Part shown: positions 8,651 to 28,256 of the stretch, piece by piece
How the letters are laid out: each line of letters starts with the position of its first letter
How positions within the stretch are numbered: position 1 is the first letter of the stretch
DNA from: Omnitrophica WOR_2 bacterium RIFCSPLOWO2_12_FULL_51_24
Lineage (GTDB): Bacteria > Omnitrophota > Gorgyraeia > Pluralincolimonadales > Pluralincolimonadaceae
DNA length: 33,406 bases
Direction of reading: 5' to 3'
NCBI GenBank assembly: GCA_001805885.1
Contig: MHHC01000020.1
Coordinates: forward strand, 1-33,406
Program-made: the position numbers and the translations under genes
The notes under the pieces: model-generated
The model's database searches: none
What the model saw: the letters and a program-made list of their open reading frames with translations, nothing else
What the model was told of the DNA's origin: nothing

Positions 8651-8667
8651 AGCCTATAGAGGAAAAT

Positions 8668-9433: not shown

Positions 9434-9454
9434 TTTTTTAATAAGTGGTGTCAT

Positions 9455-10237: not shown

Positions 10238-10239
10238 AT

Positions 10240-11244: not shown

Positions 11245-11248
11245 ATTT

Positions 11249-11324
11249 GGCCCCTTCGTCTAGTGGCCCAGGACGGCAGCTTCTCAAGCTGTAGACACGG
11301 GTTCGATTCCCGTAGGGGCTACCA
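11249..11324 (+). tRNA. tRNA-Glu (anticodon CTC)
   Basis: The sequence GGCCCCTTCGTCTAGTGGCCCAGGACGGCAGCTTCTCAAGCTGTAGACACGGGTTCGATTCCCGTAGGGGCTACCA is colinear with canonical bacterial tRNA-Glu. The anticodon loop is TTCTCAA. CCA is encoded. Length is 76 nt. Confidence 0.9.
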
Positions 11325-11351
11325 ATCGACATATTAACCCTTCAAAGCCCA

Positions 11352-13397
11352 ATGAATAAAAGAGCCCAGATAAAAGAGGGAATATTTTACCTCGGGGAGG
11401 AGCCGATTTTTTTAGTGACGGCCGACTACCCGTATTACCGCGACGACGCCGGAAATTGGGACGACAGGTTGAAGAAGATAAAGAACGCCGGCATAGACGC
11501 GGTGACTTTTTATACGCCGTGGCGCCATCACGCGCATAAATCCGGCGATAAGATAGAATTGGATTTTGACGGCAGGACCCAGCCGAACCGCAATGTCAAG
11601 CTTTTCCTGGAGCTATGCGCGGAGAAGAAGCTTTGGGCTGTGGTAAAACCCGGGCCTTACATACACGCCGAACTCACCTTCGGCGGGCTGCCGGATTGGG
11701 CTGCCGCGGAGAAGGGTTCTGGGATAGAGCCGCTCGTCAATAATAAGGGAGAGCCGATGCTGGATCCGTTCCGCCCGCCGGGCAGTTACGGAAGGCCGAT
11801 GCCCGCGCCGCTTTGCAAGAAATTCAAGGCGATGACCAAAGAGTGGTATAGATCGGTCTATGACAACCTCATTAAAGACAGCATATATCCCAAGGGCAAT
11901 ATAATCGCGGTCCAGGTCTGCAACGAGGGGCTCTATTCGAACGGGCCTGCCGCGATAACCGACTACGATTATTCCGATTCGGCCCTTGAATTATATAAGA
12001 AGTTCGCGAGGCGCGAAAACGTCAGGGCGCCGAGAAGGCTGTCGGCTGTAAAGAAAATATCTGATCTGAGAGATTATCTCGACTGGGCCCGCTGGCAGTC
12101 TGAATACATGAGATTAGTCTATGCAGAATTCTCATCGGTCCTGCGCGGGAAAGTCCCTATCGTGATAAACTTAAACCCGCCTTCGGAAGGGCGCGGACTC
12201 GATCATTGGCTTACGCGCGTCATCCCGGAGAACTGGCCCGGGATAAGTTATGGGTTCACGAACTGGCTCAGGCCCGTTTCGGAAGACAGGGTATCTTTCG
12301 ACCGCTATAGCCTCTTGTCGAAGCGCAAGAGGGGAATAAATTTCGAGGAGAATTGGGGTTTTTCCAAACTTTACGATTACCATTTCCAGTATCCGGTCGT
12401 CTGCGTATTCGAGACCTTGCTCGCTATTGCCAATGGCGCGACCGGTTTCAACGTCTATACTGCCGTAAATACCGCTTCATGGGATGACTCGATAGACTGC
12501 CAGCACGAGAGGCCTTATCCCGATTCGTCTCCGATAAAAGAAGACGGCTCGCTTACGAAGAAATACGAGGTATTGAACCTAATGTCGCTTTTCTTCGAAG
12601 TAAATGGGCCGGAATTCTTAAGATGTGAACCGGATGCTACGGTGGCGTGGGGATTATATCCGCCTTACGCCTATCTTGCCGCCTGGGATATCCCCAAGGA
12701 GGACTGGGACAGGTTCCATGCCGAGCCGGTCAGGTGCGGTTACGAGGCGCTCGACAGGTTCCAGAGGATAATGCGTGACAGAAACGGGGATTTTCAGATC
12801 GTAAATCTCGAGACCGCTTCGCCGGCCGAGCTCAAGAGGCATAAATTTATTGCGCTTTACGGCGGGTTCTTTATGGACGGAAAGACACAGAAGAAACTCG
12901 CCTCATACTCATCAGCCGGCGGAAGGGTAATATTTATCGGAGAGGCGCCGCATCTCGACGAGGATTTCAGCGACTGCCGGATATTAAAGAAGAAATGTTC
13001 CCGCCTGTTAAAGATGGAAGAAATAGGCGATATTATCGGGTGCGGTAATAAAAAATTACATGTCAGCGACCCGGAGACTCAGGTCTGGGCCTATGATAAT
13101 CCGGATAGAAAGACGCAGTTTTTCTTCGTGCTCAACCTGTCGACAAATGCCGGAGCGAGACATTTCAGTTACGAAGGCAAAAAGGCCGCCGTAGTATTGC
13201 CGGATAAATCAGCGGCCGTTATTAAAATAAAGGACGGTAAGATAGACTCCGTATTCATAAAAGGCATAAACGAGATGAATAAGACCTCAGTCGTGCCCGA
13301 AGCCGCGTTTGGTAAAGACAGGTTTAAAGCGAAGACCGCTTGCGACGTCTTGGCTCTCAGGCAAGGGAAGAAATGGCAGATAAAGATATCGGCTTAA
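11352..13397 (+). CDS. Divergent GH35-like (clan GH-A) glycoside hydrolase, putative beta-galactosidase-type, cytoplasmic
   Basis: The N-terminal 330 aa follow the GH35 layout: ADYPYYRD..WDDRLKKIKNAGIDAVTFYTPWRHH, VVKPGPYIHAELTFGGLPDW, the acid/base region VQVCNEG, and the nucleophile region NFEENWGF. There is no signal peptide. I do not recognise the C-terminal 350 aa. Confidence 0.65.
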   Translation: MNKRAQIKEGIFYLGEEPIFLVTADYPYYRDDAGNWDDRLKKIKNAGIDAVTFYTPWRHHAHKSGDKIELDFDGRTQPNRNVKLFLELCAEKKLWAVVKPGPYIHAELTFGGLPDWAAAEKGSGIEPLVNNKGEPMLDPFRPPGSYGRPMPAPLCKKFKAMTKEWYRSVYDNLIKDSIYPKGNIIAVQVCNEGLYSNGPAAITDYDYSDSALELYKKFARRENVRAPRRLSAVKKISDLRDYLDWARWQSEYMRLVYAEFSSVLRGKVPIVINLNPPSEGRGLDHWLTRVIPENWPGISYGFTNWLRPVSEDRVSFDRYSLLSKRKRGINFEENWGFSKLYDYHFQYPVVCVFETLLAIANGATGFNVYTAVNTASWDDSIDCQHERPYPDSSPIKEDGSLTKKYEVLNLMSLFFEVNGPEFLRCEPDATVAWGLYPPYAYLAAWDIPKEDWDRFHAEPVRCGYEALDRFQRIMRDRNGDFQIVNLETASPAELKRHKFIALYGGFFMDGKTQKKLASYSSAGGRVIFIGEAPHLDEDFSDCRILKKKCSRLLKMEEIGDIIGCGNKKLHVSDPETQVWAYDNPDRKTQFFFVLNLSTNAGARHFSYEGKKAAVVLPDKSAAVIKIKDGKIDSVFIKGINEMNKTSVVPEAAFGKDRFKAKTACDVLALRQGKKWQIKISA

Positions 13398-13400
13398 AGA

Positions 13401-13414
13401 TGTTACCGCTCACA
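13401..13414. promoter_or_regulatory. LacI-family operator candidate (lacO-like pseudo-palindrome)
   Basis: The site is TGTTACCGCTCACA. Its reverse complement, TGTGAGCGGTAACA, differs from the E. coli lacO1 core TGTGAGCGGATAACA by one missing base. It lies directly 5-prime of a TTGACA box and 53 nt upstream of LacI gene 1. Confidence 0.5.
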
Positions 13415-13443
13415 TTGACAAAATATCGTTGATATGGTATTCT
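13415..13443 (+). promoter_or_regulatory. Possible sigma70-type promoter of the LacI-1/GH2 transcription unit
   Basis: A perfect TTGACA at 13415-13420, a 17-nt spacer, then TATTCT at 13438-13443, ending 23 nt upstream of the ATG at 13467. Confidence 0.35.
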
Positions 13444-13466: not shown

Positions 13467-14492
13467 ATGAAACGTTTCGATAAAGCCAGTGTGACAATAA
13501 AAGACGTTGCGAAACGGGCAGGGGTCGCTCATTCGACGGTCTCTCTTGTTATGAACGACCGCGAACACGTCTCGCCGAAATTGCGCGAACGCATCCTGAA
13601 GATCGCCAACGAGATGGGCTACATGCCCAATATAGTCGCGCGCAGCCTCATCAGCAAGAAATCTGCCACCGTAGGCGTAGTCTTTCCTGAGAATCCCCAC
13701 TTCTTTACCATGACGTACTTCCTTATGGTGATCGACGGCATCCAGAGCGCCTGCAAGAAATACGATAAGGCGATGATGTTCTTCAGCCTTGACCAGACCA
13801 AGGGAGAGTCCTATTACCAGTTATCCCGCAAATGGCTTATTGATCTTATGATCATCGTTAACATCGACTACACAAGAGACCTCTCGAAGGATATCCAGGA
13901 CCTGAAGGATCACGGCATAGCCTTCTCTTTTGTGACCAAATATATAGGTAAGGAGAAGGTCAATTCGGTCTGTGTCGATAACTTAGAGGGCGTGAGGTTG
14001 GCCCTCGAGCACCTGATCGCGCAGGGCCACAGGCGGATAGGATTCATAAGCGGTAATCCGAACTCGGCTGACGGCCCAGAGAGGCTGAACGCGTTCCAGA
14101 CCCTTTCGAAGAAGATGGGATTGGACCAGGACGAGGGCCTTATCGTCTACGGTGATTTCACCTTCGAGAGCGGCGAGAGAGAGGTTCCGAAACTCCTCGG
14201 GCTCAAGAAGCGGCCCACCGCGATATTCGCCGCGAGCGATTATATGGCTATCGGCGCGATGCGCGCCATGAAGGCGCAGGGGATCTCGATACCAAAGGAT
14301 ATAGCACTGATGGGATTCGATAACTCCCTCGAATCCGCATACGTTGAACCCGCGCTCACGACGATAAGACAGCCGCTCCAGGAGATGGGCGAGAAGGCTG
14401 TCGATCTCGCCATCCGCTCGCTGAACGAAGAGAACTTTGAACCCACCACCCTTATAATGAAACCGGAGCTCCTCAAGAGACAATCATGCTAA
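13467..14492 (+). CDS. LacI/GalR family transcriptional regulator (regulator 1)
   Basis: The N-terminal HTH is TIKDVAKRAGVAHSTVSLVMN. A periplasmic-binding-protein-like sugar-binding core follows (IGFISG, AIFAASDYMAIGAMRA, IALMGFDN). Its stop overlaps the GH2 start by 7 nt. Confidence 0.9.
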   Translation: MKRFDKASVTIKDVAKRAGVAHSTVSLVMNDREHVSPKLRERILKIANEMGYMPNIVARSLISKKSATVGVVFPENPHFFTMTYFLMVIDGIQSACKKYDKAMMFFSLDQTKGESYYQLSRKWLIDLMIIVNIDYTRDLSKDIQDLKDHGIAFSFVTKYIGKEKVNSVCVDNLEGVRLALEHLIAQGHRRIGFISGNPNSADGPERLNAFQTLSKKMGLDQDEGLIVYGDFTFESGEREVPKLLGLKKRPTAIFAASDYMAIGAMRAMKAQGISIPKDIALMGFDNSLESAYVEPALTTIRQPLQEMGEKAVDLAIRSLNEENFEPTTLIMKPELLKRQSC

Positions 14493-17400
14493 AGAGGATT
14501 TTTTCGTATTGTATACCGGCAGTTTTTTTATCGTTGTGTACGATCTTACCCGCCGGGACGACGCCGGTCCAGCCCCCTGCGCCTGAGACGCAGCCCGCGA
14601 CATTCGAAGTGAAAGAAATAGACGGCCTGTATATGCCGTTTCAGAACGGCATACCTTTCCCGTCGTGGGAGAAGCAGGACCATTTATATGTAGATCTAAA
14701 CGGCGCGTGGAAGGTCGAACGAAAAAGCGTCGACCATAAGCTCACGCTTTACAATAGGACGCCGGAGAACATAAAACTTGTCGAACGGGAGGGCGCAGAT
14801 AGGCATAAGGCCGAATACAATGATGGCGGATGGAAAGAAAAACAGATCCCGGGCGTAGAGAATCCCGCTCCGGACAGATATATGGACGGTGTATGGTACA
14901 GGCGCCATTTTACAATCCCCTCCGATGCGGCCGGAAAATACATAAAGCTCATGTTCGAGGCCGCGAATTATTTCACCGACGTCTGGATCAACGGGAAATG
15001 GATAGGCTGCCATGAAGGCGGTTATACTCCGTTTGCCTTCGATATAGGCCAATACCTTAACTACGGGCAGGATAACGTGATAGCCGTCCGCGTCGATAAT
15101 ATCCCATGGCTCCCCAACGGCGACAGCTCACCCGAGGCCCTCAAGACGAACGATCATAATATAGTACTGTATGCTACAGGCGACTGGTGGAATTACGGCG
15201 GGATAACCAGAAATGTGTATATAGAAATATCACCGTTAGTCTCTGTTGTCCGCGCTGATGTGAAGCCAAAACTCGTCGACGAGAAAAATTCTGAACTGAC
15301 GATAGATGTGGTTGCCTATAACCGGAGCGATGCCGAAGTCAACTCATCTCTGTCGCTTAAAGTCCTTCAAGCCAATGTAAAGGATAGCAATTTGGAGGAA
15401 GCGTCGGCAAAGAAGATGATTACAGGTAAAACCGTCTCCGTTCAGGGCGAGACCTCTAAACAGATAACCCTCAAGGCCGGCGAGGCAAAGGCATTCAGGT
15501 TCTCCCTGAAGTCAAGCGGACTCAAGCCCTGGTCGCCGGAGGCACCGAACCTTTATGTATTGCAGGTAAATCTCGGGGACAAAAAGACAAAATCAGATGA
15601 GTTCTATACGCAGTTCGGCGTCAGGGAGATCAGCGTCGATAAGGCTAACGCGAAACTTCTCCTGAACGGAAAAGAGGTTTTCCTCCGCGGTATCGCCCGG
15701 CACGCGGTATTCTACGGAGAGCCCGGCCCGCGGGTTTACGGTCCGGCCAGCATTGTCGAGGATTTCAGGCTCGCAAAAGATGCCAACGTGAATTTCGTAA
15801 GGACTGCCCATTACCCTAACCAGCAGGAGACTTACCTGATCGCCGACAGGATGGGCCTTCTTATTTGGGAAGAGATACCCGTTTTCTGGTTCGGCGGGCC
15901 GGAATTTTTAATCCAAAAGAATGTCCGCGGCATCGCAAGACAGATGTGGTTCGAGATGATATACCGCGATTATAACAGGCCTTCGGTCATAATCTGGAGC
16001 ACGTGCAACGAGTGCAGCTGGCAGGCGGAGAGAGCCGCTTTTATCAAAGACCTCAGGGAGAACGCCTACAAGGTCGACGGGACGCGCCTCGTAGCGCAAT
16101 CGGCCTCTGGAAGCGATCCGACGGATGCAACCCAGAAGGAATGCGACCTGCTGGGATTCACCACTTATTACGGGATATTCTACGGCGGTTCGTATGACGC
16201 TGACACGAAAGTCGCACTGGAGAAAGCGCATAAGGCGTTTCCCGACAAACCGATAATATCCACCGAATACGGCATGTGGGCACATTACGGGGATTTCCCG
16301 CAGGAGGAGGTACAGATCGAAGTGGCAAAGGAAACCTTCGGGGCCCTTAGGGAGTTTCCGTATGTTGCCGGCGCAACGTGGTGGACTATCGCCGATTGGC
16401 ACACGATGATAAACGAGCCGCAGACGATGGGCACGATGACGATCGACAGGAAATTACAGAAGCCGGTCTATTTTCAGCTGCAGCGGCAATATGGCTCGCT
16501 TTTAGGCGATTTGACGGTTGAGATCAAAGAGCCGACAGAAGGGCAGGCCTTAAATGGCAAGGTCGCCATATCGGCCGAGATAAAAGGGAGAGAGAAGCCT
16601 GAGGCCGTGGAACTGATTATCGAAGGGAAGTCTTTGGGCCGGCTCTCCCAGAAAAAAGACCTCTATCAGATGGAATTGGATACGACCAAGATATCGGAAG
16701 GCAGGCATACGTTTATCGTGCGCGCGAAAAGCAAGAAAGGTTACTATATCTCCGATTTCATCAGGGTCACCATCGATAATATTGACGGGCCTCCGACTAT
16801 CACGGCCAATCTGAAAGATCAAAATGTTGTGATGGGCAAGCTCTCCCTGAAAGCCGTCGCGACCGACGACAAGGTCGTCACCTCAGTCACCTATTCTGTA
16901 GACGGAGGAGAAGTCCTGCAGATGGAGAGCATAGGCGAGGGGGATTATCAGGCGACATGGGATGCCTCAGGGCTTCCGGATGGTTCCGCGCATGAGCTTA
17001 AATTCACGGCCACTGATACGGGGAACCAGACAGCCGAAGCTAAAGCCAAGGTGACAATCGATAACAAACCCGGCCAGTACGTGGGATTACCCTTTGACCA
17101 TGACTGGATCTCCTGGAATAAAAACCGCGGTGACGGTACGGGCTATGACTTCCCGGCCGAAGAGCTGCCGGACTCGAATTCCGAATTCATATTCAACGGC
17201 GCCGAGAAGGTAAAGTTCAGATTAGGCGAAAAGACCGACGGCGCAAAAAATAATGTCGAATGCAACAAACAAAAGATAGCTTTCGCCCCGGGTAATTATA
17301 CAAAAGTGCACATACTTGCCACTATGCATAACGGCGGGTCGAGACAACCGTTTATTCTCAACTATACCAACGGCACCTCCGAGAAGGTTGTGACCGGTTT

Positions 17401-19063
17401 TTCAGATTGGTGGGGAGGGAACCCTGTCTTCGGCGAAGAAACGGTCATGATGACTACACACCATCATGAAGTGGCCGCTGACAGAAAACCGGGCGTGGCG
17501 CTCTATATACAGACGCTGGAGCCCGACAAGAAGAAGATCCTTTCTTCTATTGGTTTGCCCGCGGATAAGAAGATCCATATTTTCGCGATGACCCTTGAGG
17601 GAGAAGTCTCGAACGTTCCCTTGCCCGAACCCGCCATAGTAGAGCCTAAATCTGACTCATCAGTGGGCGATGTGGTCAAAATCGTCGCGGAGGATAAACA
17701 GAAAAATATCGCAAAAGTCGAGTATTCCACGGACGGAGACGACTGGAGATCGATGACCCCCGCAGGAGACGGAACCTATACGGCCGATTGGGATACGACC
17801 AAATTAAAAGGCATAAACCACACTATAAACGTAAAGGCGACCGATAAGATAGGACAGATAAACATAAAGAGCATAAGCGTCAGGGTTGTAAATAAGGTCA
17901 CCATAGTATTTCCGTTTGAGGGCGCGAGCGTCTATAGGATGGCTACGCTCATGGTCGAACCGAGAGCTAACAAGGAAGTCGATAAAATAGAATATTCTAT
18001 CGATAACGGGCAGTTTATGCAGATGTCGCCCAATATGGGGTTATACACGGCCGAGTGGAAGATAGACGAAGGATATAAACCGGGCTCAGCCCATATGCTG
18101 ATAGTAAGGGAAATTGAGAAGGGCGGCGGGGTCACCATCGACACGGTCAAGGTCACGGCCGACACGGTCAAAATCATGATCGCCGAGCCGGTCAAGGGCC
18201 ATTCCATAAAGGTCGATAAGAATGTAAGGGATTGGGTCGGCGTTCCGCCGGAACAGGAGAACGCCGCGACGGTCAGTAACGGAGAATATATATGGAAAGA
18301 TGAGAAAAACGATGATACCGGGAACGGCCATTACACGTATCCGACGAATAGAGCGGTGAACAAAGGCGCGGACCTGCGGGAATTTAGGGTCACTTGGGAC
18401 AGCGAGAATCTCTATTTAATGATAAAATGCGATCGCCCCGGAGATTACTGGGCGCCTTACAGGATAATAGGGATAGACAAGGATGGCGCTAAAGGCGGAA
18501 ATAGCGGTACTCAGGTATTGGCACAGGTCAACTTAGATGACATTAGTCCTGACACTGGTTGCTACGGCAACCTTAAGGTCTCGCCGGAACTGGCTTGCGA
18601 ATACGCCATAGGGATATCCAATTCCTATAAGGGCCGCATCTGGGACGCGAAAGGAAAACTTATCGCTCGTAAGGAAGGCGATAACAATGATACGTCCGGA
18701 TTTCTGGTAGATGACGCGAATTGGAATGCCGTTGAGGTGGCTATCCCATTGAAACTTATAGGGGCAAGCCCGGCTCTCCTCTCGGGACAGACGTGGAGAT
18801 TTATAGTCGGAGTCGGCTTGCAAGATAACGAAATTTTCAGGAAAATAGATAAGGATGCGTCCGAGTGGCATGGAGGAGGAGGCGAGATAAACGGCTCGAA
18901 CCCCTATGTTTACGATCTTGCGAGCCCTGACAGGAAGACGCAGGAATATGAACTGAACAGCTACAAAAAGGAAGGTGACTCCGCGGATCCCGGCACGTTT
19001 GTGACCATCAGGAGGTCTTATCTGACCGTTACATTCAGCGACGAGGGGGCGAAGTCCCCATAA
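14486..19063 (+). CDS. Secreted 1525-aa multidomain GH2 glycosidase: GH2 catalytic core, two Ig-like domains, an unknown domain, two Ig-like domains, and a Glucodextran_C-like C-terminal module
   Basis: The signal peptide MLKRIFSYCIPAVFLSLCTILPAG is followed by a Pro/Thr-rich linker. The GH2 sugar-binding domain shows WYRRHFTIP and FEAANYFTDVWINGKWIGCHEGGYTPFAFDI. The TIM barrel shows VNFVRTAHYPNQQE, with acid/base WSTCNECSW (Glu about residue 509) and nucleophile ISTEYG (Glu about residue 594). See the domain features below. Confidence 0.85.
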   Translation: MLKRIFSYCIPAVFLSLCTILPAGTTPVQPPAPETQPATFEVKEIDGLYMPFQNGIPFPSWEKQDHLYVDLNGAWKVERKSVDHKLTLYNRTPENIKLVEREGADRHKAEYNDGGWKEKQIPGVENPAPDRYMDGVWYRRHFTIPSDAAGKYIKLMFEAANYFTDVWINGKWIGCHEGGYTPFAFDIGQYLNYGQDNVIAVRVDNIPWLPNGDSSPEALKTNDHNIVLYATGDWWNYGGITRNVYIEISPLVSVVRADVKPKLVDEKNSELTIDVVAYNRSDAEVNSSLSLKVLQANVKDSNLEEASAKKMITGKTVSVQGETSKQITLKAGEAKAFRFSLKSSGLKPWSPEAPNLYVLQVNLGDKKTKSDEFYTQFGVREISVDKANAKLLLNGKEVFLRGIARHAVFYGEPGPRVYGPASIVEDFRLAKDANVNFVRTAHYPNQQETYLIADRMGLLIWEEIPVFWFGGPEFLIQKNVRGIARQMWFEMIYRDYNRPSVIIWSTCNECSWQAERAAFIKDLRENAYKVDGTRLVAQSASGSDPTDATQKECDLLGFTTYYGIFYGGSYDADTKVALEKAHKAFPDKPIISTEYGMWAHYGDFPQEEVQIEVAKETFGALREFPYVAGATWWTIADWHTMINEPQTMGTMTIDRKLQKPVYFQLQRQYGSLLGDLTVEIKEPTEGQALNGKVAISAEIKGREKPEAVELIIEGKSLGRLSQKKDLYQMELDTTKISEGRHTFIVRAKSKKGYYISDFIRVTIDNIDGPPTITANLKDQNVVMGKLSLKAVATDDKVVTSVTYSVDGGEVLQMESIGEGDYQATWDASGLPDGSAHELKFTATDTGNQTAEAKAKVTIDNKPGQYVGLPFDHDWISWNKNRGDGTGYDFPAEELPDSNSEFIFNGAEKVKFRLGEKTDGAKNNVECNKQKIAFAPGNYTKVHILATMHNGGSRQPFILNYTNGTSEKVVTGFSDWWGGNPVFGEETVMMTTHHHEVAADRKPGVALYIQTLEPDKKKILSSIGLPADKKIHIFAMTLEGEVSNVPLPEPAIVEPKSDSSVGDVVKIVAEDKQKNIAKVEYSTDGDDWRSMTPAGDGTYTADWDTTKLKGINHTINVKATDKIGQINIKSISVRVVNKVTIVFPFEGASVYRMATLMVEPRANKEVDKIEYSIDNGQFMQMSPNMGLYTAEWKIDEGYKPGSAHMLIVREIEKGGGVTIDTVKVTADTVKIMIAEPVKGHSIKVDKNVRDWVGVPPEQENAATVSNGEYIWKDEKNDDTGNGHYTYPTNRAVNKGADLREFRVTWDSENLYLMIKCDRPGDYWAPYRIIGIDKDGAKGGNSGTQVLAQVNLDDISPDTGCYGNLKVSPELACEYAIGISNSYKGRIWDAKGKLIARKEGDNNDTSGFLVDDANWNAVEVAIPLKLIGASPALLSGQTWRFIVGVGLQDNEIFRKIDKDASEWHGGGGEINGSNPYVYDLASPDRKTQEYELNSYKKEGDSADPGTFVTIRRSYLTVTFSDEGAKSP
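14600..16516 (+). other. GH2 catalytic region (sugar-binding jelly roll, Ig-like sandwich, TIM barrel) of the 1525-aa protein
   Basis: Motifs are listed under the parent CDS. LWSPEAPNLY marks the end of the Ig-like sandwich. Boundaries are approximate. Substrate (beta-galactoside, beta-mannoside or beta-glucuronide) cannot be assigned by eye. Confidence 0.75.
16517..17065 (+). repeat. Two tandem Ig-like (bacterial Ig / Big-type) domains, protein-level repeat
   Basis: Each unit is about 90 aa and ends in VTIDN. The shared pattern is V..V.Y(S).DG.....M...G.G.Y.A.WD...L.DG.H.L...A.D. Similarity shows at protein level only. Boundaries are approximate. Confidence 0.6.
17066..17605 (+). other. Unassigned ~180-aa domain inserted between the Ig-like pairs (residues ~861-1040)
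   Basis: The domain runs KPGQYVGLPFDHDWISWNKNRGDGTGYDFPAEELPDSNSEFIFNG...VECNKQKIAFAPGNYTKVHILATMHNGG...FSDWWGG...IHIFAMTLEGE. It is probably a beta-sandwich. I cannot name a family. Confidence 0.4.
17630..18163 (+). repeat. Two further tandem Ig-like domains (copies 3 and 4)
   Basis: Copy 3 shows VKIVAEDKQKNIAKVEYSTDGDDWRSMTPAGDGTYTADWDTTKL. Copy 4 shows VDKIEYSIDNGQFMQMSPNMGLYTAEWKIDEGYKPGSAHML. Both follow the same pattern as copies 1 and 2. Boundaries are approximate. Confidence 0.6.
18197..19060 (+). other. C-terminal ~288-aa Glucodextran_C-like module of the GH2 protein (paralogue copy 1)
   Basis: It starts at GHSIKVDKNVRDWVGVPPEQ. The motif EYIWKDEKNDDTGNGHYTYPTN....GADLREFRVTWD resembles the D.(G)DD.G.G.YTYP......DL..F.V signature I associate with the Pfam Glucodextran_C family. 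It is colinear with the two downstream proteins all the way to the C-terminus. Confidence 0.6.
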
Positions 19064-19080
19064 AAAGGAGGTGCAGTAAA

Positions 19081-20061
19081 ATGGGCAGAGTAGCGTTATT
19101 TTTAGTGATTGGGCTGGTATTTTCGTCTGTATGTTTTGCCGAGGATGCTGCGGAGCCTGCGGCTACAGCCGTAAAAGCTCTTACTGTCGATGAAGCGGGG
19201 AAGATCCCGGTTACCGGGCACACCATCGCGGCCGACAAGAATATAAGAGACTGGACAGGCGTAGCTCCGGAACAGGAGAACTCAGCCGCGGTGAGCAATG
19301 GAGAGTACATATGGAAGGATGCGGCGGGCGATGATGCAGGAAGCGGAAGTTATACTTATCCCCTGGATAAGGTGCTCAAGAAAGGCGCGGACCTGAAAGA
19401 ATTCAGGGTGACATTTGATAAGGATAACCTTTATCTCCTGATCAGGACCGACAGGCCCGGAGACTGGTGGACCGGTTTCAAGATAGTAGGGATACATAAA
19501 GAAGGGGCCGCCGGCGGGACAGAGGTCTTGGCGCAGGGTGATATGGATGAAGGCGGTTTCGATTCAGGCACTTTCGCCAATCTGAAAGTCGCGCCCGCAC
19601 TTGCTTGTCAGTATGTCGTGGCGATCTCCTCGAGTTATAAGGGCCGTATTTATGACGAGAAGGGCAAGGTGATAGCCCGCAAAGAGGCGCAGCCGGATGA
19701 TACACCAGGGTTCAAGGTCGATGACTTTAACTGGAATGCGATCGAAGTCGTTATTCCGTTGAAGCTAATAGGCGTGCCCCAAGGGGCTAGTCCAGCAGGA
19801 GAGACGTGGAAATTCATTATTGCTACAGGTCAGCAGGATAGCGATGTCGCCCGAAGGGTCGAGGCGACGCAAAGCCAGTATCATGGCGGCGGCGGAGCTG
19901 AAGTCAACGTGAATCCGAATGTCTATGATTTAGCCGGGTCCGACAAGGCTACGCAGGAGAAAGAACTGGGTAGTTTTGATCCTAACGCGCAAGAGGGCGA
20001 TCCGAAAGGTTTCGCAACTATCGGGAAATCGTTCTTGACGGTTAATTTCGGTTCGAAATAA
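19081..20061 (+). CDS. Secreted stand-alone Glucodextran_C-like module protein (326 aa, paralogue copy 2)
   Basis: A strong SD, AAGGAGGTG, lies at 19068-19076. The signal peptide is MGRVALFLVIGLVFSSVCFA/ED. The mature part aligns end to end with GH2 residues ~1238-1525: GHTIAADKNIRDWTGVAPEQENSAAVSNGEYIWKD, YTYP, ADLKEFRVTFD, QYHGGGG, YDLAGSD, and KSFLTVNF. Confidence 0.8.
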   Translation: MGRVALFLVIGLVFSSVCFAEDAAEPAATAVKALTVDEAGKIPVTGHTIAADKNIRDWTGVAPEQENSAAVSNGEYIWKDAAGDDAGSGSYTYPLDKVLKKGADLKEFRVTFDKDNLYLLIRTDRPGDWWTGFKIVGIHKEGAAGGTEVLAQGDMDEGGFDSGTFANLKVAPALACQYVVAISSSYKGRIYDEKGKVIARKEAQPDDTPGFKVDDFNWNAIEVVIPLKLIGVPQGASPAGETWKFIIATGQQDSDVARRVEATQSQYHGGGGAEVNVNPNVYDLAGSDKATQEKELGSFDPNAQEGDPKGFATIGKSFLTVNFGSK

Positions 20062-20091
20062 CAGGTCTATTTTTGTAGAAAGGGCAGGAGG

Positions 20092-21054
20092 ATGAGAAGG
20101 AAGCCTATTTTTTATCTGGTATTGGTATCTCTTTTCCTGCTCTGCTCTCCCGCTGATGCGGGAGAGACGTACGGAACCCTATCCGGCCATTCCATAAAGG
20201 TAGACGGTTCGGTATCCGACTGGGTCGGTGTCGCTCCGACCAAGCTTGATACGGGAACGATAAGCAAAGGCGAATTCATATGGGAAGACGCCTTAGGCGA
20301 CGACACCGGAAACGGCAGATACACCTATCCCAAAAATCCCGCCATGGCAAGAGCTGCTGATCTCAAGGAGTTCAGGGTCACATGGGACAGTAGGAACGTT
20401 TATTTTCTTATTAAGATGACAATGCCCGGCGAGTGGTGGGCCCCTTACCGAGTTATCGCCGTAGACACCGACGGCGCCGGTGGCGGCAGAAAAGGCATGA
20501 GGGTGATACAGCAGGGTGACATCGATACGATGGATTCGGATAGCGGTACGTTCGGCGAGTTGAGGGTCTCAAGTTCGCTTGCCGCCGATTACGTTATTGT
20601 CATATCCGGAACGTATAGAGGTATGATCTGGGACGCGAAGGGGAGACTTGTCGCAAAGACCTCCGGCGAAAAGACCGATACGCCCGGTTTCAAGATCAAG
20701 GATTCAAACGTGGCTACTATCGAGATCCAGGTGCCGCATAAGATAATAGGGAATCCCCAGGGAAGGATCTGGAGATTTATCGTCGCGACCGGCATCGAGG
20801 ACCATGGGCACGTCCGGGAGATATACAGGGAAGCGGAGGAATGGCATGGCGGCGGCGGCGAGAATACGGTCGCCGAAGACGGAGTGGACCCAGATTTCTA
20901 TGACCTCGCCAGCCCGGACCAGAACACGCAGGAGATAGAACTGGCGGGCTATGGGGCGAACGCGCCGGCCGGCGAGAGCCGATCATTCACAGAGATAAAG
21001 AAATCATATTTGGAAATAAAGTTCTCCCCATTTTTGAGTTCGACTCCCAAGTGA
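20092..21054 (+). CDS. Secreted stand-alone Glucodextran_C-like module protein (320 aa, paralogue copy 3)
   Basis: The signal peptide is MRRKPIFYLVLVSLFLLCSPADA/GE. The protein shows GHSIKVDGSVSDWVGVAP, GEFIWEDALGDDTGNGRYTYP, ADLKEFRVTWD, EWHGGGGE, YDLASPD, and KSYLEIKF. It is colinear with copies 1 and 2. Confidence 0.8.
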   Translation: MRRKPIFYLVLVSLFLLCSPADAGETYGTLSGHSIKVDGSVSDWVGVAPTKLDTGTISKGEFIWEDALGDDTGNGRYTYPKNPAMARAADLKEFRVTWDSRNVYFLIKMTMPGEWWAPYRVIAVDTDGAGGGRKGMRVIQQGDIDTMDSDSGTFGELRVSSSLAADYVIVISGTYRGMIWDAKGRLVAKTSGEKTDTPGFKIKDSNVATIEIQVPHKIIGNPQGRIWRFIVATGIEDHGHVREIYREAEEWHGGGGENTVAEDGVDPDFYDLASPDQNTQEIELAGYGANAPAGESRSFTEIKKSYLEIKFSPFLSSTPK

Positions 21055-21060
21055 CCTCAA

Positions 21061-21078
21061 TATGTTATCGATAACATA
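21061..21078. promoter_or_regulatory. Perfect 18-bp palindromic LacI-family operator candidate
   Basis: TATGTTATC|GATAACATA is a perfect inverted repeat with a central CG. It fits the LacI/GalR operator consensus (TGnnAnCGnTnnCA). It ends 2 nt before the ATG of LacI gene 2. It shares the TGTTA(T/C)C half-site with the 13401 site and with the right half of lacO1. Confidence 0.6.
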
Positions 21079-21080
21079 AT

Positions 21081-22094
21081 ATGAAGAAAGTAACCTTTAA
21101 AGAGATCTCCAAGATAGTCGGCATATCCCCGATGCACGTATCCAGGGCCCTGGCCGGGCATCCTTACGTCAAGGAAGAACTGCGCCGGCGGATATTCAAG
21201 GTTGCCAAAAAGCTCAACTACAGCGTAAACCCCTTCGGCCGCGGCCTCTCGAAGAACATCCAGATGAAGGCGCGCATGATATGTATCCTGACCAAATACG
21301 AAAACTTCTTTCGGACAGAATATTTCATCAACCTGATGGACGCTATCAGCGACAATTGCAGGGCGAAGGGATACGACGTAATAATAGTAAGCCTTAACGA
21401 CAACGAACCGGAGAACATAAAGAGGCTCAAGAACCTGGTCAATTATCATAAGGCGGGCATAATAGAGGGGTTTGCCTTTATCGCGCCCGACCTTGAAGCT
21501 CCGGAAGGGATCTTCCTGCACGGCGAGAAAGTAAATTTCGTATGTGTAGGAGACAGGATAGTCGCAGAGACGAAATATGTCGATGTCGATAATTTCCGGG
21601 CGGGTTTTGAGGTAGGGGAATACCTGGTCGGACTAGGACACAAGAAGATCGGTTTCGTGAGGGGTCCGGGCAATAGGTATGACACCCATGTGAGGTATCA
21701 GGGTTTCTTAAACGCCCTCCAGGCGAAGGGGCTCAGGCCGGAACAGGGCCTTATAGTGAACGGGGATTATAAGGCCGCTGGCGGAAAAAAAGCGACGGCG
21801 ATATTATTTTCACAAAAGAAAAGACCCGACGCAGTATTTTATGCTAACGACCTCATGGCCTACGGCGGCCTCGAGTTCTTTAAAGAAAAAAAGATAAAGG
21901 TACCGCGGGATGTATCGATAGTAGGTTTTGACGATCTTGCGGCGTCGTCCAAGACCGAGCCTCCGCTCACGACACTCAGGCAGCCGTATGGGGAGATGGG
22001 CGAAGCGGTCACCGAGGCTGTATTGGACCCGAATTTTGTGTCAAAGAGTATCGCGGCGAAATTAATAATAAGGAAGAGTTGCGACAGGTTATAG
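21081..22094 (+). CDS. LacI/GalR family transcriptional regulator (regulator 2)
   Basis: The N-terminal HTH is TFKEISKIVGISPMHVSRALAG. The sugar-binding core shows IGFVRGPG, AVFYANDLMAYGGLEF and SIVGFDD. No Shine-Dalgarno sequence is visible upstream. Confidence 0.88.
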   Translation: MKKVTFKEISKIVGISPMHVSRALAGHPYVKEELRRRIFKVAKKLNYSVNPFGRGLSKNIQMKARMICILTKYENFFRTEYFINLMDAISDNCRAKGYDVIIVSLNDNEPENIKRLKNLVNYHKAGIIEGFAFIAPDLEAPEGIFLHGEKVNFVCVGDRIVAETKYVDVDNFRAGFEVGEYLVGLGHKKIGFVRGPGNRYDTHVRYQGFLNALQAKGLRPEQGLIVNGDYKAAGGKKATAILFSQKKRPDAVFYANDLMAYGGLEFFKEKKIKVPRDVSIVGFDDLAASSKTEPPLTTLRQPYGEMGEAVTEAVLDPNFVSKSIAAKLIIRKSCDRL

Positions 22095-22103
22095 GAGAAG
22101 AGG

Positions 22104-25100
22104 ATGAGGAGAACGGCCGCATACAAGATCGGCAATGATAACGAGTTTATCATCGAGAACTACAACTACTCAAAGGCCTTTTCGAGTTTTTTGCCCGGTA
22201 TAGCCGGAGTGGACGGGATCCCGATGTGGGTCTTTTATGTGAACAGGAATCAGGCGGTCTGCAGCCTGGGCATAGAGAGCAAAGACCGCGCGATGATGGA
22301 ATTCCTGCCGGCGAATTTCGCGTATCAGCTGGTCGGGACGCAAGGCTTCAGGACTTTTATCAAGATAAGGGTCAAGGGTGGATTTACTTTATATGAGCCG
22401 TTCCGGATATACGAGAAAGAAGAGAGATACATCCCGTCCCAGACGATGATAATAACCCCTTATTCCGTCATACTCAAGGAAATCCACGAGAGACTGGGAA
22501 TAAGCGTCGAAATCAAATACTGCAATGTAGTGCAGGAACCGTTCCCCGGCCTGATAAGGCAGGTGGAGATAAAAAATATCTCCAAACGGCCGATAAAGAT
22601 CGAACTCCTCGACGGTATCCCGCGGGTCATCCCGTTCGGGATGGATGATGTCAGCCTCAAGAGGATGAAATACCTCGTCAGATCCTTTAGTTTCGTAGAG
22701 AACCTCGAAAAAATGATCCCATATTTTCACATCAGGACGACCCACGAAGACGGCCCCGAGGTCGCGATGGTGAAGAGGGGACATTACTATGCATGCGTCA
22801 AAGTGGACGGCAAGAAGGCGGAGCTGAAGCGTCCCCTGGTCGATACCTCGCAGATCTTCGGCACGAGGGAGGACCTTATCTTTCCTTCAAAATTTAACGT
22901 CAAGTCCAAATTTGCATACGATCTTAAGAATGAGCTCACGAGCGGCGAATTTTCTTCCGCTATGTGCTACGAGAATATTACGCTCAGGCCGTCGGAGGCG
23001 CTTGCCTTATACTGCGCCTGCGGGACCCTTGACTCTCTCGGCGATACAGAGAAGGTCGCGCGCGCCCTTACTGCGGATTTTGCGGAGATACAGCTCGAAA
23101 GGAACAGGGTCCTTATTGAATCGATAATGAGCTGTTCTTTGATCGTAAGCGAAAATGAGAAATTCGACAGGTATTCCGTTCAGAATTTTCTCGATAACGT
23201 TTTAAGAGGCGGCTTCCCGATAGCAGTGGCCAAGGATAGAGGCAAGGTATTCTATGTCTATTCCAGAAAACACGGCGACCTGGAAAGGGATTATAATCAG
23301 TTCTACCTCTCGCCTACCGTCTATTCCCAGGGTGATTCCAATTACAGGGACGTGAATCAAAATAGGCGCAATGATGCGTTCTTCAATCCCGATGTCGGGA
23401 TGACCAATATAGTGAATTTCGTAAATCTCATACAGATCGACGGGTTCAATCCGCACGGCGTGGGCGGGATGTCCTTTGTATACAAAGGGGGCAAGGTCCT
23501 GAGCGAAGCGAAGGGCACGGTCCTTAGCGAAGCTAAGGGCAAAAAACTCCTTATAGATATCTTCAGTAGAGCAGCCGACAGGATGGATGAATTTCTCAAA
23601 AACCCTTTCACCCCCGGCGACATCTTCAAGTTCATCGACTCCGATTCGATAAAGCCGGCCGTATCAAAAGAGGAGATGCTCTCCCGGATACTTGAGAATT
23701 CCGACGCGATCCAGAATTCACAGCATAGCGACGGGTTCTGGAGCGACCACTGGCATTATAACATGGACCTCATCGACAGCTTCCTTGCGGTATATCCGGA
23801 CAGGAGGAAAGAGCTCTTCTTTGATCGCAGGGATTTCACATTCCACGACGGCCCTTGCATAGTGCTTCCGAGGGAGGATAAATACGTTGTCTGGGACGGC
23901 AAACCTATCCAATTGGGCGCGGTGAGGATCGACGAAGAAAAGAAGAAAATGATTTCCGGCAGGAAGTCGGACAAGACGCTCGTTCGCAAAGTAAACGGCA
24001 AAGGCGATATCTACAGAACGAACCTCATAACGAAACTTTTCATCATCGCGGTCAACAAGATAAACTCCATCGGGCCGGACGGCTGCGGCATCGAGATGGA
24101 GACAGATAAGCCAAACTGGTATGACGCGTTAAACGGCCTGCCTGGTCTCTTCGGCTCGTCCTCCAACGAGACATTCGAGTTAAAGAGACTCATCAGTATG
24201 ATCTCGAAAAACCTCAACGCGAACGTTGACGAGAACGTTGACAACGCCGCTCTCGAGCTTCCCGAGGAGGTTGCCGATATCGTTAGAAGTTCCAGGGGTA
24301 TCTTAAGCGATTATCTCGACGGAAGATTAGACGATTTCGGCGTATGGGATAAGCTGACCGCGATAAAAGAGGATTTCAGGAAGAAGGTGAAGTTCGGGAT
24401 AATCGGCAGGCTGGTCCCGGTCCCGGCTGACGAGCTCTCCGAATACCTTATAATTGCGGGTAAGAGAATACAATCCGCAATAAACAAAAGTTTTGACGAG
24501 AAGACCGGGCTTTATTCCGGATATTTCATCAATATCCCCGCCGAATACGAACAGATCACCTATGTCGACAACTCCGGGAAAGAAGTGCCGAAGATAAACC
24601 ACAAAGGTCTTCCATGCATAAAAGTCATGAAGTTCAATTCGAGACCGCTGCCGTTATTCCTGGAGGCGCAGGTCCACGCGCTTAAAGTGGAGGAGGATAA
24701 GTCGGTCGCGGCGAAGCTGCACCGCAATCTGATGAAGAGTGATCTGGTTGACAAGAAGCTTAAAATGTTTTTCGTGAATGCCTCGCTAGAAAAAGAACCG
24801 TATGAGATAGGCAGGACAAAGACCTTCAATCCGGGCTGGCTGGAGAACCAATCGATCTGGCTGCACATGGAATACAAATATATGCTTGAACTCCTGAAGG
24901 CCGGGCTTTATGAGGACTATTATGAGAACTTAAAGAACGTGCTCGTGCCTTTCCTGAAGCCCGAGGTCTACGGGCGCAGCATATTCGAAAATTCATCGTT
25001 TATCGCAAGCAGCGTCCATCCCGACAGGAAGGTCCACGGCCAGGGGTTCTACGCGAGGCTCTCCGGTTCGACCGCGGAATTCGTCCATATGTGGCTTATA

Positions 25101-25466
25101 ATGGTTACCGGCGGCAAGCCGTTTGCGCTGGATGGGAACGGTAAACTGGTATTCAGCCTCTCGCCGGCCTTGAAGGGCGATATGTTCCTTAAAAAGGACC
25201 GCAAGGTCAGTTATTATTCTCCCTGCGGGAAATTACGCGAGGAGACGGTAAAGAAGGGCACGGTGAAATTCATCTTCCTGGGAAAGATCCCCGTGACTTA
25301 CGTCAACCCCAAGGGAAGAGATATATTCGGGAAGAGCGAGGGAGCCAAGTATCTGGTGACGCTCGAGGATGGCACTACAAAGGAATTTACCGGCAGCGTC
25401 CCCGGGCCGTACGCGGATCTTATAAGAGAGAGAAAAATAAAAGAGATAAAGGTGTTCTTCAACTAG
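22104..25466 (+). CDS. Uncharacterised 1120-aa cytoplasmic protein; possibly a distant (alpha/alpha)6-barrel glycoside phosphorylase/hydrolase (GH94-like)
   Basis: GGAG lies upstream and there is no signal peptide. Notable motifs are [25 protein letters not shown] near the N-terminus, [13 protein letters not shown], and [13 protein letters not shown] at residue ~670. The last recalls the DWND(C/A)LN catalytic-Asp motif of GH94 phosphorylases. [13 protein letters not shown] follows. The assignment rests on motif resemblance only. Confidence 0.7.
   Translation: [1120 protein letters not shown]
23493..23540 (+). repeat. In-frame 24-nt tandem duplication (KVLSEAKG / TVLSEAKG)
   Basis: The two units are aaggtcctgagcgaagcgaagggc and acggtccttagcgaagctaagggc. 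They match at 21 of 24 positions. Two of the three differences are synonymous. Confidence 0.85.
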
Positions 25467-25484: not shown

Positions 25485-28256
25485 GTGAATAAGGGTGTTG
25501 TTTCTTTCGACAGAAAGAGCATGATCATAGGCGGAGAACGCGTGTTGCTCTACGGCGGAGAGTTCCATTACTTCCGCGTGCCGCATGAATTATGGGAAGA
25601 CAGGCTTCAGAAGATGAAGGCGGCGGGCTTAAACCTCGTCGCGACGTATATACCGTGGAATTTCCACGAGACGAAAGAGGGCGAATTTAATTGGGCGCGC
25701 GACCGCGATCTCGAGAAATTCATAACACTGACCGAGAAATACGGGTTTTATCTTGTCATAAAGCCGGGCCCGTATATCTGCGCGGAGTGGGATTCCGGCG
25801 GGTTCCCGGATTGGCTCTTGGCCAAAAAAATAAATCTGCGCGAAGACGATCCCAAGTATCTTAAGATTGTCGGCAAGTATTATAAGGAGATCGCAAAGAT
25901 CCTCAGGCCGCATCTGATCACTAAAGGCGGCAACATTATATTGTTCCAGATAGAGAATGAATACGACCACCTCATAGCATTCAGCGGCGTAAAGAGATAC
26001 AGGGACAACGCGCTGCGCTATCACCTTAAATTGCTCAAGATGGTGCGTAAGACGGGTATAGACATTCCGACTTTTGCGGTCGAAGGAAGTTTCTTGAGAA
26101 AGAGCGAGATAATCGACGCGAGGACGTATTACCCGAACATCCCGTGGATATGGCTGTGGGAGTTCAACGATTTCGACAAGGCGATAGACGCCTCGGTCGC
26201 GGAACAGCCCAAAAAACCCCTGATGATAATGGAGCTCGAGACCGGCTGGTTCGCGCAGTTCGGCAGACCTCTCTATCAGATAGAGCCGGAGGTCACGAGG
26301 GCGATACTTAGGACGGTCATAGCCGAGGGCGCGTCAGTAATGAACCAATTCCTGTTTGTCGGCGGCACGACATTCCCTTATTGGAACTGCAAGGGCGACT
26401 TAGACGGTATAGGCACCTGCACTACGTATGATTTCGGCCATTCGCCTATAAGGGAGTGGGGCGAGGTCTCTCCGACAAAATATCACATGGCCCGCAATAC
26501 CGCGCAGTTCCTCGATTCGTTCGAGGACGTGCTTTTCGAGGCGGAGAAGAAGGAGGGCGCGGCAAAGTTTATCGACGCCGGCAATACCGTGGCGCTCGTA
26601 GACCGGAAGAAGGGCGCGGTCAAGCCCGACTTCTCGGGGACTTTCGAGAACGTCAAAGTCGTCGAAACGGCCGGGAGGAAGGGCGGATTCATCATGATCC
26701 GCAATCTCACGGAAGATACCCACAGGGTCCAGATAGAATATTTTTCTCCGGCAGAGAAGAGGAACAAGAGGCTGCCCATGAAAGGGGACCTTGAGCTTGG
26801 CCCCCGGTCTTCATTCCTCTTACCCATCGATATACCCATAGGCGATGGGGGTATGGTACTGAAACAGTCGACATGCGAGCTCCTGTTGAGGAAAAAGATC
26901 GGCAACGATGAATTTGTGTTTCTCGTCGGAAAGTCGGAACTTAAAAGCAGGACCTATCTCAAATGCGGTTCCGCGAAACCGGTGGTCGTCGAGGGCGATT
27001 TCAGGGTAGAGAAGGCCAGGGACGGTTATATCATAGAGAACGATAACGGGGGGCTCCGCATAATAAAGGTGGGCGGGGTCTTTTTCGTATTCCTTGACGA
27101 TAAAAAGGCCGCAAGGGTATGGGACAGGCAAGAGGCGGTAGTGGTCAGCGATTACTATTATATCGGGGATATCCTCGTCGACCGGAAGTCCATCGGCATA
27201 AGCGCGCAGGTCAAGAACGGCAGCAACCAGCGCACGAGGATATTTACGGCCTTCGTGCCCAAGGCGATAAGGATCAACAACGTGAAGGTGAAATTCAAAT
27301 ACGACAAGGAGACCGGGTCGGCGACTTTCGAGTATGATTGCGCCGTGGAAGAGCTTCCGAAAATAACATGGCTTGACTCTCCCCGGTTCATCTCTGACAT
27401 CGAAGAGAAAGAATGCGGTTATAACGATTCATCGTGGAAGACGATAGCCTTGCCGAAGGCGCTGGAACAGGCAGGATTCCTGGAGCACGGTTTTATCTGG
27501 TACAGGCAGAAGTTCGGACTAAAGGGCAAACCGTCAGAGTGCCGCGCGAAGATCGTGACCAACGACATAGACAGGTTCTATGTCTATATAAACGGTGAAT
27601 TCATCTGGCGCGGGATAGGGAGCCCCGATCTTGATATTACGGGGGCCGTAAAGAAGGGCGAGAACGTCCTTGCCGTAAGGTATGAGAACGCCTATCACAC
27701 AAAGGCGCATCCGCATGAAGGGCCGATAAAAAAGCTGAGCGGCATAATGCAGCCGGTGAAGATACACGGCAGGGCATCCGGCAGGGCCTTTAGCATCATC
27801 CTGAAGAAGATGCTTATACGCGAAAGGGCGGGCGGCTTGATCAAGGGCTATCATAAATCCGAATGCAGCGAGAGCGGATGGAGGGTTTCGCCTCCGGCGA
27901 AGAAATACGTATTCGCGAAGGATATGGGCGAGCTCCTATGGTACAGGCGGAAGTTTAAGCTCTTGCCCCGCAAGGGCGGCGTCTGTGCCCTCAAGCTTAC
28001 GATAGACCACGCCTTAGAGAGATGCGTCATATATCTGAACGGGAGAGCGCTCGGCAAATACGAGTCGGTCGGGCCGCAGAACGATTTTTACATCCCGGAG
28101 CCGTTCCTGCGCAATGAGAATACGCTCGCGATCCTCATCGAGGGGCCGGGTTTCCACCCGGTCAAGGAATCCGGTTTCATGCCGCCGGTCCTGAAGGACC
28201 CGAAGATAGGTTTCTACTACACCGCGAAACTGTTGAATGTGAGAATATCCGGATAA
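25485..28256 (+). CDS. GH35 beta-galactosidase (923 aa, cytoplasmic), with C-terminal beta-sandwich (galactose-binding-like) domains
   Basis: GTG start with AGGAGG at 25474-25479. The GH35 pattern is classic: [60 protein letters not shown], acid/base FQIENEYD, and nucleophile region [11 protein letters not shown]. There is no signal peptide. The C-terminal WYRQKF and WYRRKF jelly-roll-like segments are repeated. Confidence 0.88.
   Translation: [923 protein letters not shown]

Follow-up and report, generated by a model that had tools for sequence, protein, structure and literature searches.

A stretch of 33,406 nucleotides from Omnitrophica WOR_2 bacterium RIFCSPLOWO2_12_FULL_51_24 (contig MHHC01000020.1 of assembly GCA_001805885.1, positions 1 to 33,406; hereafter the window) encodes a predicted exported glycoside hydrolase of family 2 (GH2) that ends in a Glucodextran_C module, followed by two smaller proteins, here termed F1 and F2, which carry the same module and no enzyme. 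This fused-plus-free layout is real and ancient, and the free modules were found to be strictly linked to one GH2 orthologue group and interchangeable with the fused copy. That F1 and F2 are exported, non-catalytic glycan-binding partners dedicated to this GH2 has, in our estimate, an even chance of being correct. The Glucodextran_C family and the generic name that NCBI gives to its members were already known; free members dedicated to a GH2 and the fused-plus-free layout had no description in the literature searched.

Three copies of the Glucodextran_C module

The enzyme-borne module comprises residues 1238-1525 of the GH2 (18197-19063 including the stop codon), F1 (326 residues) is encoded at 19081-20061 and F2 (320 residues) at 20092-21054, all on the + strand, and F1 and F2 share one reading frame. 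Pfam profile searches assigned all three to Glucodextran_C (PF09985, clan DOMON_like), with 75.0 bits (E 8e-21) for the GH2 copy, 76.7 bits (E 2.5e-21) for F1 and 80.9 bits (E 1.3e-22) for F2, against a curated gathering threshold of 22 bits and with 214-217 of the 228 profile positions covered in each copy. The likeness to this family, which had been proposed earlier from the letters of the DNA (hereafter the sequence-only reading), is thus borne out. No other Pfam family, including SLH (PF00395) and CBM9, matched any of the three copies at E ≤ 10, and no NCBIfam model matched F1 or F2. Besides its signal peptide, each free protein consists of a single module of ~290 residues and nothing else. 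Where the Omnitrophota homologues have been given a name by NCBI, it is "glucodextranase DOMON-like domain-containing protein".

The three segments are colinear over their full length, from GH(S/T)I to the C-terminal S(Y/F)L.(V/I).F, with pairwise identities of 43-58 % (58 % for F1 and 51 % for F2 relative to the GH2 copy). The alignment therefore confirms that the GH2 C-terminus and the next two gene products are colinear paralogues, and every one of the shared motif blocks listed for them in the sequence-only reading is present. Synonymous sites are saturated among the copies (proportion of synonymous differences, pS, 0.72-0.81), nonsynonymous divergence (dN) is 0.33-0.51 by the Nei-Gojobori method, and the same codon is used at just 39-52 % of the identical residues. 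Saturated pS together with the lower dN and low codon sharing shows that the copies are old duplicates and no assembly artefact, as had been claimed, and that they are ancient paralogues kept by purifying selection.

Export signals

The N-termini of F1 and F2 show a basic residue and a hydrophobic stretch, followed by CFA-ED or ADA-GE, and signal peptides of ~20 residues in F1 and ~23 residues in F2 were predicted. The maximum hydropathy over 12 residues is 2.9 in both proteins, compared with 1.0-1.5 in their cytoplasmic neighbors. A basic-plus-hydrophobic N-terminus was observed in the GH2, F1, and F2 only, and in none of the LacI-family regulators, the GH161 homologue, and both GH35 homologues encoded around them. 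Signal peptides on the two stand-alone proteins had been noted before, and the observation extends to the relatives described below, where hydropathy indicated an export-type N-terminus in 66/66 orthologous free copies. The N-termini of F1 and F2 contain no L-x-[GAS]-C lipobox, and neither SusC nor SusD was identified in the window or in the syntenic loci.

Fold and conserved residues of the module

An AlphaFold2 model of F1, obtained with 47 homologues, had a predicted local distance difference test score of 91.7 and a predicted template modeling (TM) score of 0.88, with disorder only in the signal peptide, and depicts the mature protein as one mostly-beta globule. The top Foldseek match of this model was Arthrobacter glucodextranase (1ug9; E 6.6e-9, probability 1.00, 283 aligned columns, TM score (query) 0.51), the structure with which the sequence-only reading had proposed to compare it. 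Next in rank were several entries of the family 74 carbohydrate-binding module (CBM74) of Ruminococcus bromii Sas6 (E 5e-6 to 1.4e-4). The remaining PDB matches were generic Ig-like sandwiches with E values of at least 0.015, and no CBM9 structure was present among the 50 best matches. At the sequence level, phmmer of F1 against the PDB sequences returned nothing at E ≤ 1. When the PDB sequences were all compared with a profile of the 47 homologues (E ≤ 10), only 1ug9 was recovered (E 0.41, limited to the D..GDD.G.G.Y.YP.N motif) and no Sas6 CBM74 chain. The module is a Glucodextran_C member with, according to the model, the fold of the glucodextranase C-terminal domain. Its likeness to CBM74 is confined to the predicted fold, and it is not placed in CBM9 by either sequence or structure search.

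The enzyme-borne, first-free, last-free, and "Elusimicrobia" free clades (see below) have 54 conserved residues in common, including W58, W78, Y91, Y93, F108, Y118, W130, and F211 (F1 numbering) as well as many Asp and Glu, among them D80, D84, and D85, and only 4 of about 290 positions are conserved in a clade-specific manner. By analogy with CBM9 and CBM74, the acidic DD.G.G loop may hold a structural Ca2+.

Two further interpretations of conserved residues were considered and rejected. The C-terminal L.V.F is not an outer-membrane-protein signature; it corresponds in the model to the last strand of the beta-sandwich (E319-323), and variable tails follow it. A histidine brace like that of the lytic polysaccharide monooxygenases (LPMOs) was discarded because cleavage at the predicted site leaves no His at the N-terminus and because the enzyme copy has its GH motif in the interior of the chain.

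Conservation of the locus in relatives

A word-indexed protein search gave 76 matches, all of 180-348 residues and with PF09985 alone, and all those with a named source are from Omnitrophota/Omnitrophica. Looking up contigs and scanning a single genome for each species yielded 36 loci, which were then searched with a hidden Markov model of the family and by tblastn with the GH2 core. Close relatives of the free module were found in 31 of the 36 loci, of which nearer two dozen are independent because some contigs are duplicates (L005/L011 and probably L001/L017); they derive from Omnitrophota and from metagenome-assembled genomes (MAGs) labelled Elusimicrobia, Verrucomicrobia, and others. In 29 of these 31 loci an orthologous GH2 (43-78 % identity) lies immediately upstream of the free module, and the other two loci are truncated by the end of the contig. 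The neighborhood survey suggested in the sequence-only reading thus shows that the free copies are co-conserved with the orthologous GH2.

The number of free copies per locus ranges from 1 to 3, and the window has two. In Omnitrophota, the syntenic order is ATP-binding cassette (ABC) transporter, a 708-residue DUF5060 protein, LacI, GH2 with module, and three free modules, followed by LacI, a GH161-like protein, GH35, and gltB. A neighbor-joining tree, the deeper branching of which is not to be trusted, contains three orthologue clades, corresponding to the enzyme-borne ("ENZ"), the first free, and the last free copy. F1 falls among the first copies and F2 among the last, which makes F2 orthologous to the final free copy of those relatives that have three. 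The middle copies of these relatives group with the first-copy clade and are therefore later duplicates of the first copy. In the "Elusimicrobia" MAGs, LacI is followed by two pseudopilin-like genes and the GH2 with module; next come a free module, an ABC solute-binding protein, a second free module, two permeases, and a GlmA-like glycosidase. In L022, an ABC solute-binding protein gene separates the two free copies.

Four loci are split variants: L010 from Omnitrophota, L026 from a MAG labelled "Planctomycetia", L029 from an unclassified source, and L030 from Verrucomicrobia. Here, the GH2 has 1043-1062 residues and no module, and a gene for a free module follows directly. The short GH2 ends at the equivalent of residue ~1040 of the window protein, which is the exact start of the extension made up of Big_7 domains and module. 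Fused and split loci are a natural fusion/fission pair, and this clean evolutionary argument is the strongest evidence that module and GH2 act together.

Some features of individual loci were also observed. The downstream context of L010 (12659-14323) is unlike that of the other loci: the two free modules are followed by a 196-residue exported protein without Pfam match and then by a GH5 cellulase-family enzyme with CBM6/CBM35. In "Elusimicrobia" and Verrucomicrobia MAGs, prepilin/pseudopilin-type genes with an N_methyl motif are located inside the GH2 operon (L022, 4261-5376) or beside it (L030, 202-885), and in L005 (1-380; Omnitrophota) a T2SSK/Laminin_G_3-like gene is found upstream instead of pseudopilin genes. 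These gene types hint that the GH2 and the modules may leave the cell by type II secretion or by a route linked to pili.

The GH2 enzyme

The open reading frame (ORF) of the GH2 spans 14486-19063 on the + strand and encodes 1525 residues. Its core (residues 1-1040, 14486-17605) contains the signal peptide, the GH2 N-terminal, Ig-like, and TIM-barrel domains at residues 125-669, and Big_7 Ig domains, and is present in all orthologues, the short ones included. Between core and module lies a C-terminal extension of Ig-like spacers (17606-18196, + strand) that matches Big_7 and is missing from the short orthologues. Glyco_hydro_2_N, Glyco_hydro_2, and Glyco_hydro_2_C all scored above threshold in Pfam, and the nearest PDB sequences to the catalytic region are a GH2 beta-galacturonidase and beta-glucuronidases (E about 1e-54; best 6e-55). 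The protein contains CNEC and STEYG stretches, which we take to be the expected acid/base and nucleophile positions of the catalytic Glu residues of clan GH-A. Since it scored far below the cut-off of every NCBIfam equivalog model, no specificity was assigned to this GH2. The ~170 residues at positions ~870-1040 (17093-17605 in the window), which start with GQYVGLPFDHDWISWNKNRGDGTGYDF, have no Pfam match and are found in all orthologues; in the short GH2 variants they form the final domain, just before the gene for the free module. This region may serve as a docking site or as an additional binding domain.

Proposed role and alternatives

If F1 and F2 are glycan-binding partners of the GH2, the locus may be pictured as follows. 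LacI, GH2, F1, and F2 would be transcribed as one LacI-controlled unit, as suggested by gaps of 17-30 nt, an overlapping stop and start, and the lack of a terminator on the + strand. The 1525-residue GH2, a putative exo-glycosidase, and the two ~300-residue proteins would be exported by the Sec pathway, to judge from their signal-peptide features. Each free protein is a lone ~290-residue Glucodextran_C beta-sandwich of the DOMON/CBM9-like superfamily, with the conserved aromatic and acidic residues the same in all copies as in the enzyme-borne one. Because these residues are common to all copies, all probably bind the same polymeric glycan, which they would hold or concentrate at the envelope, or loosen, for the GH2. 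Gene content suggests that the resulting oligosaccharides would be imported by the ABC transporter, which is part of the locus in relatives, and that their final breakdown would fall to the GH161 phosphorylase and the GH35s in the cytoplasm. Of the roles offered in the sequence-only reading, its alternative of soluble glycan-capture proteins fits best.

Several points weigh against this role. F1 and F2 have no lipobox, transmembrane helix, dockerin, or sorting tail, and a soluble, unanchored binder gives the enzyme no gain in targeting unless it is bound to the enzyme or the cell. In a host presumed to be diderm, the proteins may reside either in the periplasm or outside the cell. The known partners of the family are alpha-glucan enzymes (GH15, GH57, GH65, and GH49), whereas here the partner is a GH2. 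In addition, direct evidence of sugar binding has never been obtained for any Glucodextran_C domain (PMC10074034).

An unanchored soluble module is most sensible if it sticks to something, and F1 and F2 could be non-covalent subunits of the GH2 that dock module to module or on the core, giving a hetero-oligomeric extracellular complex or scaffold, which was the first idea of the sequence-only reading. The fusion of module and GH2 in most genomes and their separation into adjacent genes in L010, L026, L029, and L030 form a Rosetta-stone pattern, gene adjacency is invariant with tight spacing, and the distinct paralogue clades keep a fixed gene order. However, the number of free copies differs among genomes (1, 2, or 3), and L010 keeps both free copies intact despite a GH2 without module, so that pairing with the enzyme-borne module is not obligatory; clade-specific residues, at 4 of about 290 positions, give little sign of specialized complementary interfaces. 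We therefore consider such subunits unlikely. The same degree of doubt applies to the full form of this idea, in which non-covalent contacts of the free Glucodextran_C proteins, both with the GH2 and among themselves, create an exported, hetero-oligomeric glycosidase complex of which fused and split loci are alternative builds. If this were true, Glucodextran_C would be both a new carbohydrate-binding family and an oligomerization or scaffolding module in the nano-sized Omnitrophota and their relatives.

It seems still more doubtful that the free modules bind a cell-surface glycan, of their own envelope or of a host or prey, as an adhesin or a coat that retains the GH2. This would include the S-layer-like or anchor role offered in the sequence-only reading. 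In its favor, the family bears the label "SLH-like" in Pfam, membrane or type IX secretion system (T9SS)-type anchors occur on members from other lineages, and the operon includes pseudopilin genes in L022 and adjoins them in L030. Yet the copies gave neither an SLH (PF00395) nor any second Pfam match at E ≤ 10 and have no anchor or repeat architecture. Their genes belong to a LacI-regulated catabolic operon with cytoplasmic glycosidases and are not found among envelope genes, and they are linked to a single GH2 orthologue group only; an S-layer role is unsupported. Finally, the stand-alone modules might themselves be enzymes or redox proteins, in the manner of the "chitin-binding" CBM33 proteins, which proved to be LPMOs, or of heme-binding DOMON domains. 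The DOMON superfamily includes heme-binding members, and the module combines numerous invariant acidic positions with a conserved (W/Y)HGGGG motif. This is highly improbable, though, as the predicted mature proteins do not begin with His, the conserved GH motif lies within the chain where the module is enzyme-borne, the HGGGG histidine is not conserved at ≥90 % in all clades, the closest structures are non-catalytic domains, and no Pfam match to cytochrome-type DOMON families was obtained.

Comparison with known systems

Glucodextran_C is placed in the DOMON_like superfamily, resembles CBM9, occurs on GH15, GH57, GH65, and GH49 enzymes, and has no CBM family status (PMC10074034). When it was deleted from MdDDE, the Km for polysaccharides rose threefold while that for oligosaccharides did not (PMC10074034), and these are the sole functional data on the family. 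The window module shares with glucodextranase the Pfam family, the motif D..GDD.G.G.Y.YP.N, the best structural match, and export, while outside the motif the sequence similarity to 1UG9 is marginal (E 0.41). In glucodextranase, the GH57 amylopullulanases, GH65 MdDDE, and the GH49 dextranases, however, the module is fused to alpha-glucan enzymes, whereas in the window it is fused to a GH2 and also present as two separate proteins. The dextran locus of Microbacterium dextranolyticum encodes GH65 MdDDE and two enzymes of GH49, all three of which bear a Glucodextran_C "D-domain" (PMC10074034). It resembles the window in having several module copies in one glycan-utilization locus with a sugar ABC transporter, and there the module improves affinity for the polymer. 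It differs in that each of the three copies belongs to an enzyme, with no free copy, in that an alpha-glucan serves as substrate, and in its Gram-positive actinobacterial host.

CBM74 of Sas6 (PDB 7UWV/7UWW), the second-best fold match (E 5e-6), is also a large CBM9-like beta-sandwich of ~300 residues, and its core was described as CBM9-like by the Sas6 authors (bioRxiv 10.1101/2022.11.20.514607). Sas6 is an enzyme-free, non-catalytic starch-binding protein that accompanies enzymes carrying related modules, and as such a functional analogue of F1 and F2. On the other hand, CBM74 superimposes poorly on the F1 model (root-mean-square deviation ~9 Å, TM 0.46) and has no detectable sequence relationship to it, and a dockerin attaches Sas6 to the amylosome, whereas F1 and F2 have no anchoring element. 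The accessory surface glycan-binding proteins of polysaccharide utilization loci (SusE/SusF-type) and the tapirins of Caldicellulosiruptor are likewise non-catalytic binders encoded beside a cognate glycosidase and transporter. SusE/F are Bacteroidota lipoproteins, and the folds and families of SusE/F and the tapirins are unrelated to F1 and F2. Unlike SusE/F-type loci, the window locus has neither a lipobox nor a SusC/D pair.

In the literature searched, no paper was found on free Glucodextran_C members, on their dedication to a GH2, or on the fused-plus-free layout, in agreement with the sequence-only reading, which knew of no described system of this kind. Glucodextran_C is a widespread ~290-residue module of secreted glycosidases whose function has so far been inferred. 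Being enzyme-free, single-module, tied to one GH2, and well folded according to the model, F1 and F2 would be handy reagents for a test of its ligand. The locus also indicates that the family works with beta-glycosidase systems and not just with alpha-glucan enzymes, and adds a concrete conserved glycan-utilization system to the little-known physiology of Omnitrophota.

Regulators and neighboring genes

Upstream of the operon, a cytoplasmic GH35/GlmA-like exo-beta-glycosidase homologue is encoded at 11352-13397 (+ strand; Pfam Glyco_hydro_35 plus GLMA_2nd); its product also matches the NCBIfam exo-beta-D-glucosaminidase model, below that model's cut-off. The region 13401-13443 (+ strand) contains a candidate LacI-type operator half-palindrome, TGTTACCGCTCACA (13401-13414), and a sigma-70-like promoter (13415-13443; TTGACA-17-TATTCT, with TG), both low-confidence consensus matches. 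They precede LacI-family regulator 1 (13467-14492, + strand; Pfam LacI plus Peripla_BP_1/3), which has the same place in the syntenic loci and the stop codon of which overlaps the GH2 start. Downstream of F2, the perfect 14-bp palindrome TGTTATCGATAACA (21063-21076, strand not applicable), of which TGTTACCGCTCACA is a degenerate relative, has the shape of a LacI-type operator, overlaps a promoter-like site, and lies 5 nt before LacI-family regulator 2 (21081-22094, + strand; Pfam), the first gene of a putative second operon. The two sites look like candidate LacI-family operators of two separate operons. Intergenic gaps are 17 nt between GH2 and F1, 30 nt between F1 and F2, and 26 nt between F2 and LacI 2, an AGGAGG Shine-Dalgarno site is located 9 nt upstream of F1, and no terminator-like site was found on the + strand within 16000-23400. 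Taken together, palindromes, promoter-like sites, gaps, and the missing terminator make two LacI-controlled operons likely, the first consisting of LacI, GH2, F1, and F2.

LacI 2 is followed on the + strand by a GH161-type beta-1,3-glucan phosphorylase homologue of 1120 residues (22104-25466), a cytoplasmic GH35 beta-galactosidase homologue (25485-28256; Pfam Glyco_hydro_35, E 9e-84), and the large subunit of glutamate synthase (28257-32825). The GH161 homologue has no Pfam match but matches the recently solved GH161 phosphorylases of PDB entries 9qqk (E 4.7e-191) and 9h8v at E ~1e-190. It appears to be cytoplasmic (hydropathy 1.47, no signal peptide), and every syntenic Omnitrophota locus has it in the corresponding place. 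The GH161 match points to beta-1,3-linked oligosaccharides as part of the putative substrate of the locus.

A sugar ABC transporter (solute-binding protein and two permeases) lies just upstream of LacI-GH2 in L001-L005 and is absent from the window, where 9404-13397 instead holds a sugar-phosphate-isomerase-like gene, a Gfo/Idh/MocA oxidoreductase, tRNA-Glu, and the GlmA-like GH35. Three tRNA genes are interspersed among the sugar-metabolism genes: Gln-CTG (8577-8650), Leu-GAG (9346-9433), and Glu-CTC (11249-11324). Two mechanically called ORFs overlap them. The ORF at 8584-9165, without Pfam match, overlaps tRNA-Gln and is doubtful as called. Because the ORF at 9404-10237 overlaps tRNA-Leu, this gene for a xylose-isomerase-like TIM barrel probably has its true start at the ATG at 9452.

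The wider Glucodextran_C family

Among 1.84 billion representative proteins, a complete HMMER search identified 599 clusters at E ≤ 1e-3, of which 176 reached E ≤ 1e-10. Many of the 599 are proteins of 300-450 residues in which the module begins at residue 15-30, that is, a signal peptide, one module, and nothing or a short tail. The sequence-only reading had described the module as normally an appendage of an enzyme; this holds for the known enzymes, but not for the many enzyme-free proteins among the 599 clusters. Of twelve stand-alone clusters inspected, P0101 and P0113 have C-terminal transmembrane helices, and the other type of tail comprises ~90 residues with sub-threshold matches to T9SS sorting or FlgD-Ig domains; such tails suggest surface anchoring of enzyme-free members elsewhere. 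A name look-up of ten distant stand-alone clusters returned "hypothetical protein" or nothing.

Several enzyme-free members are located in glycan loci. In L039, an ABC transporter, a free module, a GH66-like enzyme, and a TrmB regulator are followed further downstream by a GH31, and in L037 the free module adjoins a GH57, with two Por_Secre_tail proteins nearby. In L031, from a Bathyarchaeia MAG, a GH57 with module is followed by a GH13 and then by a free module. Enzyme-free members of the family are thus a common, uncharacterized class. In addition, giant ORFs of 5079-6101 residues in Verrucomicrobiota/Kiritimatiellia MAGs (L034, 1760-17056; L035, 1916-17155; L036, 44-18349) match the N-terminal half of the module only (profile positions ~21-181, E 1e-14 to 1e-17).

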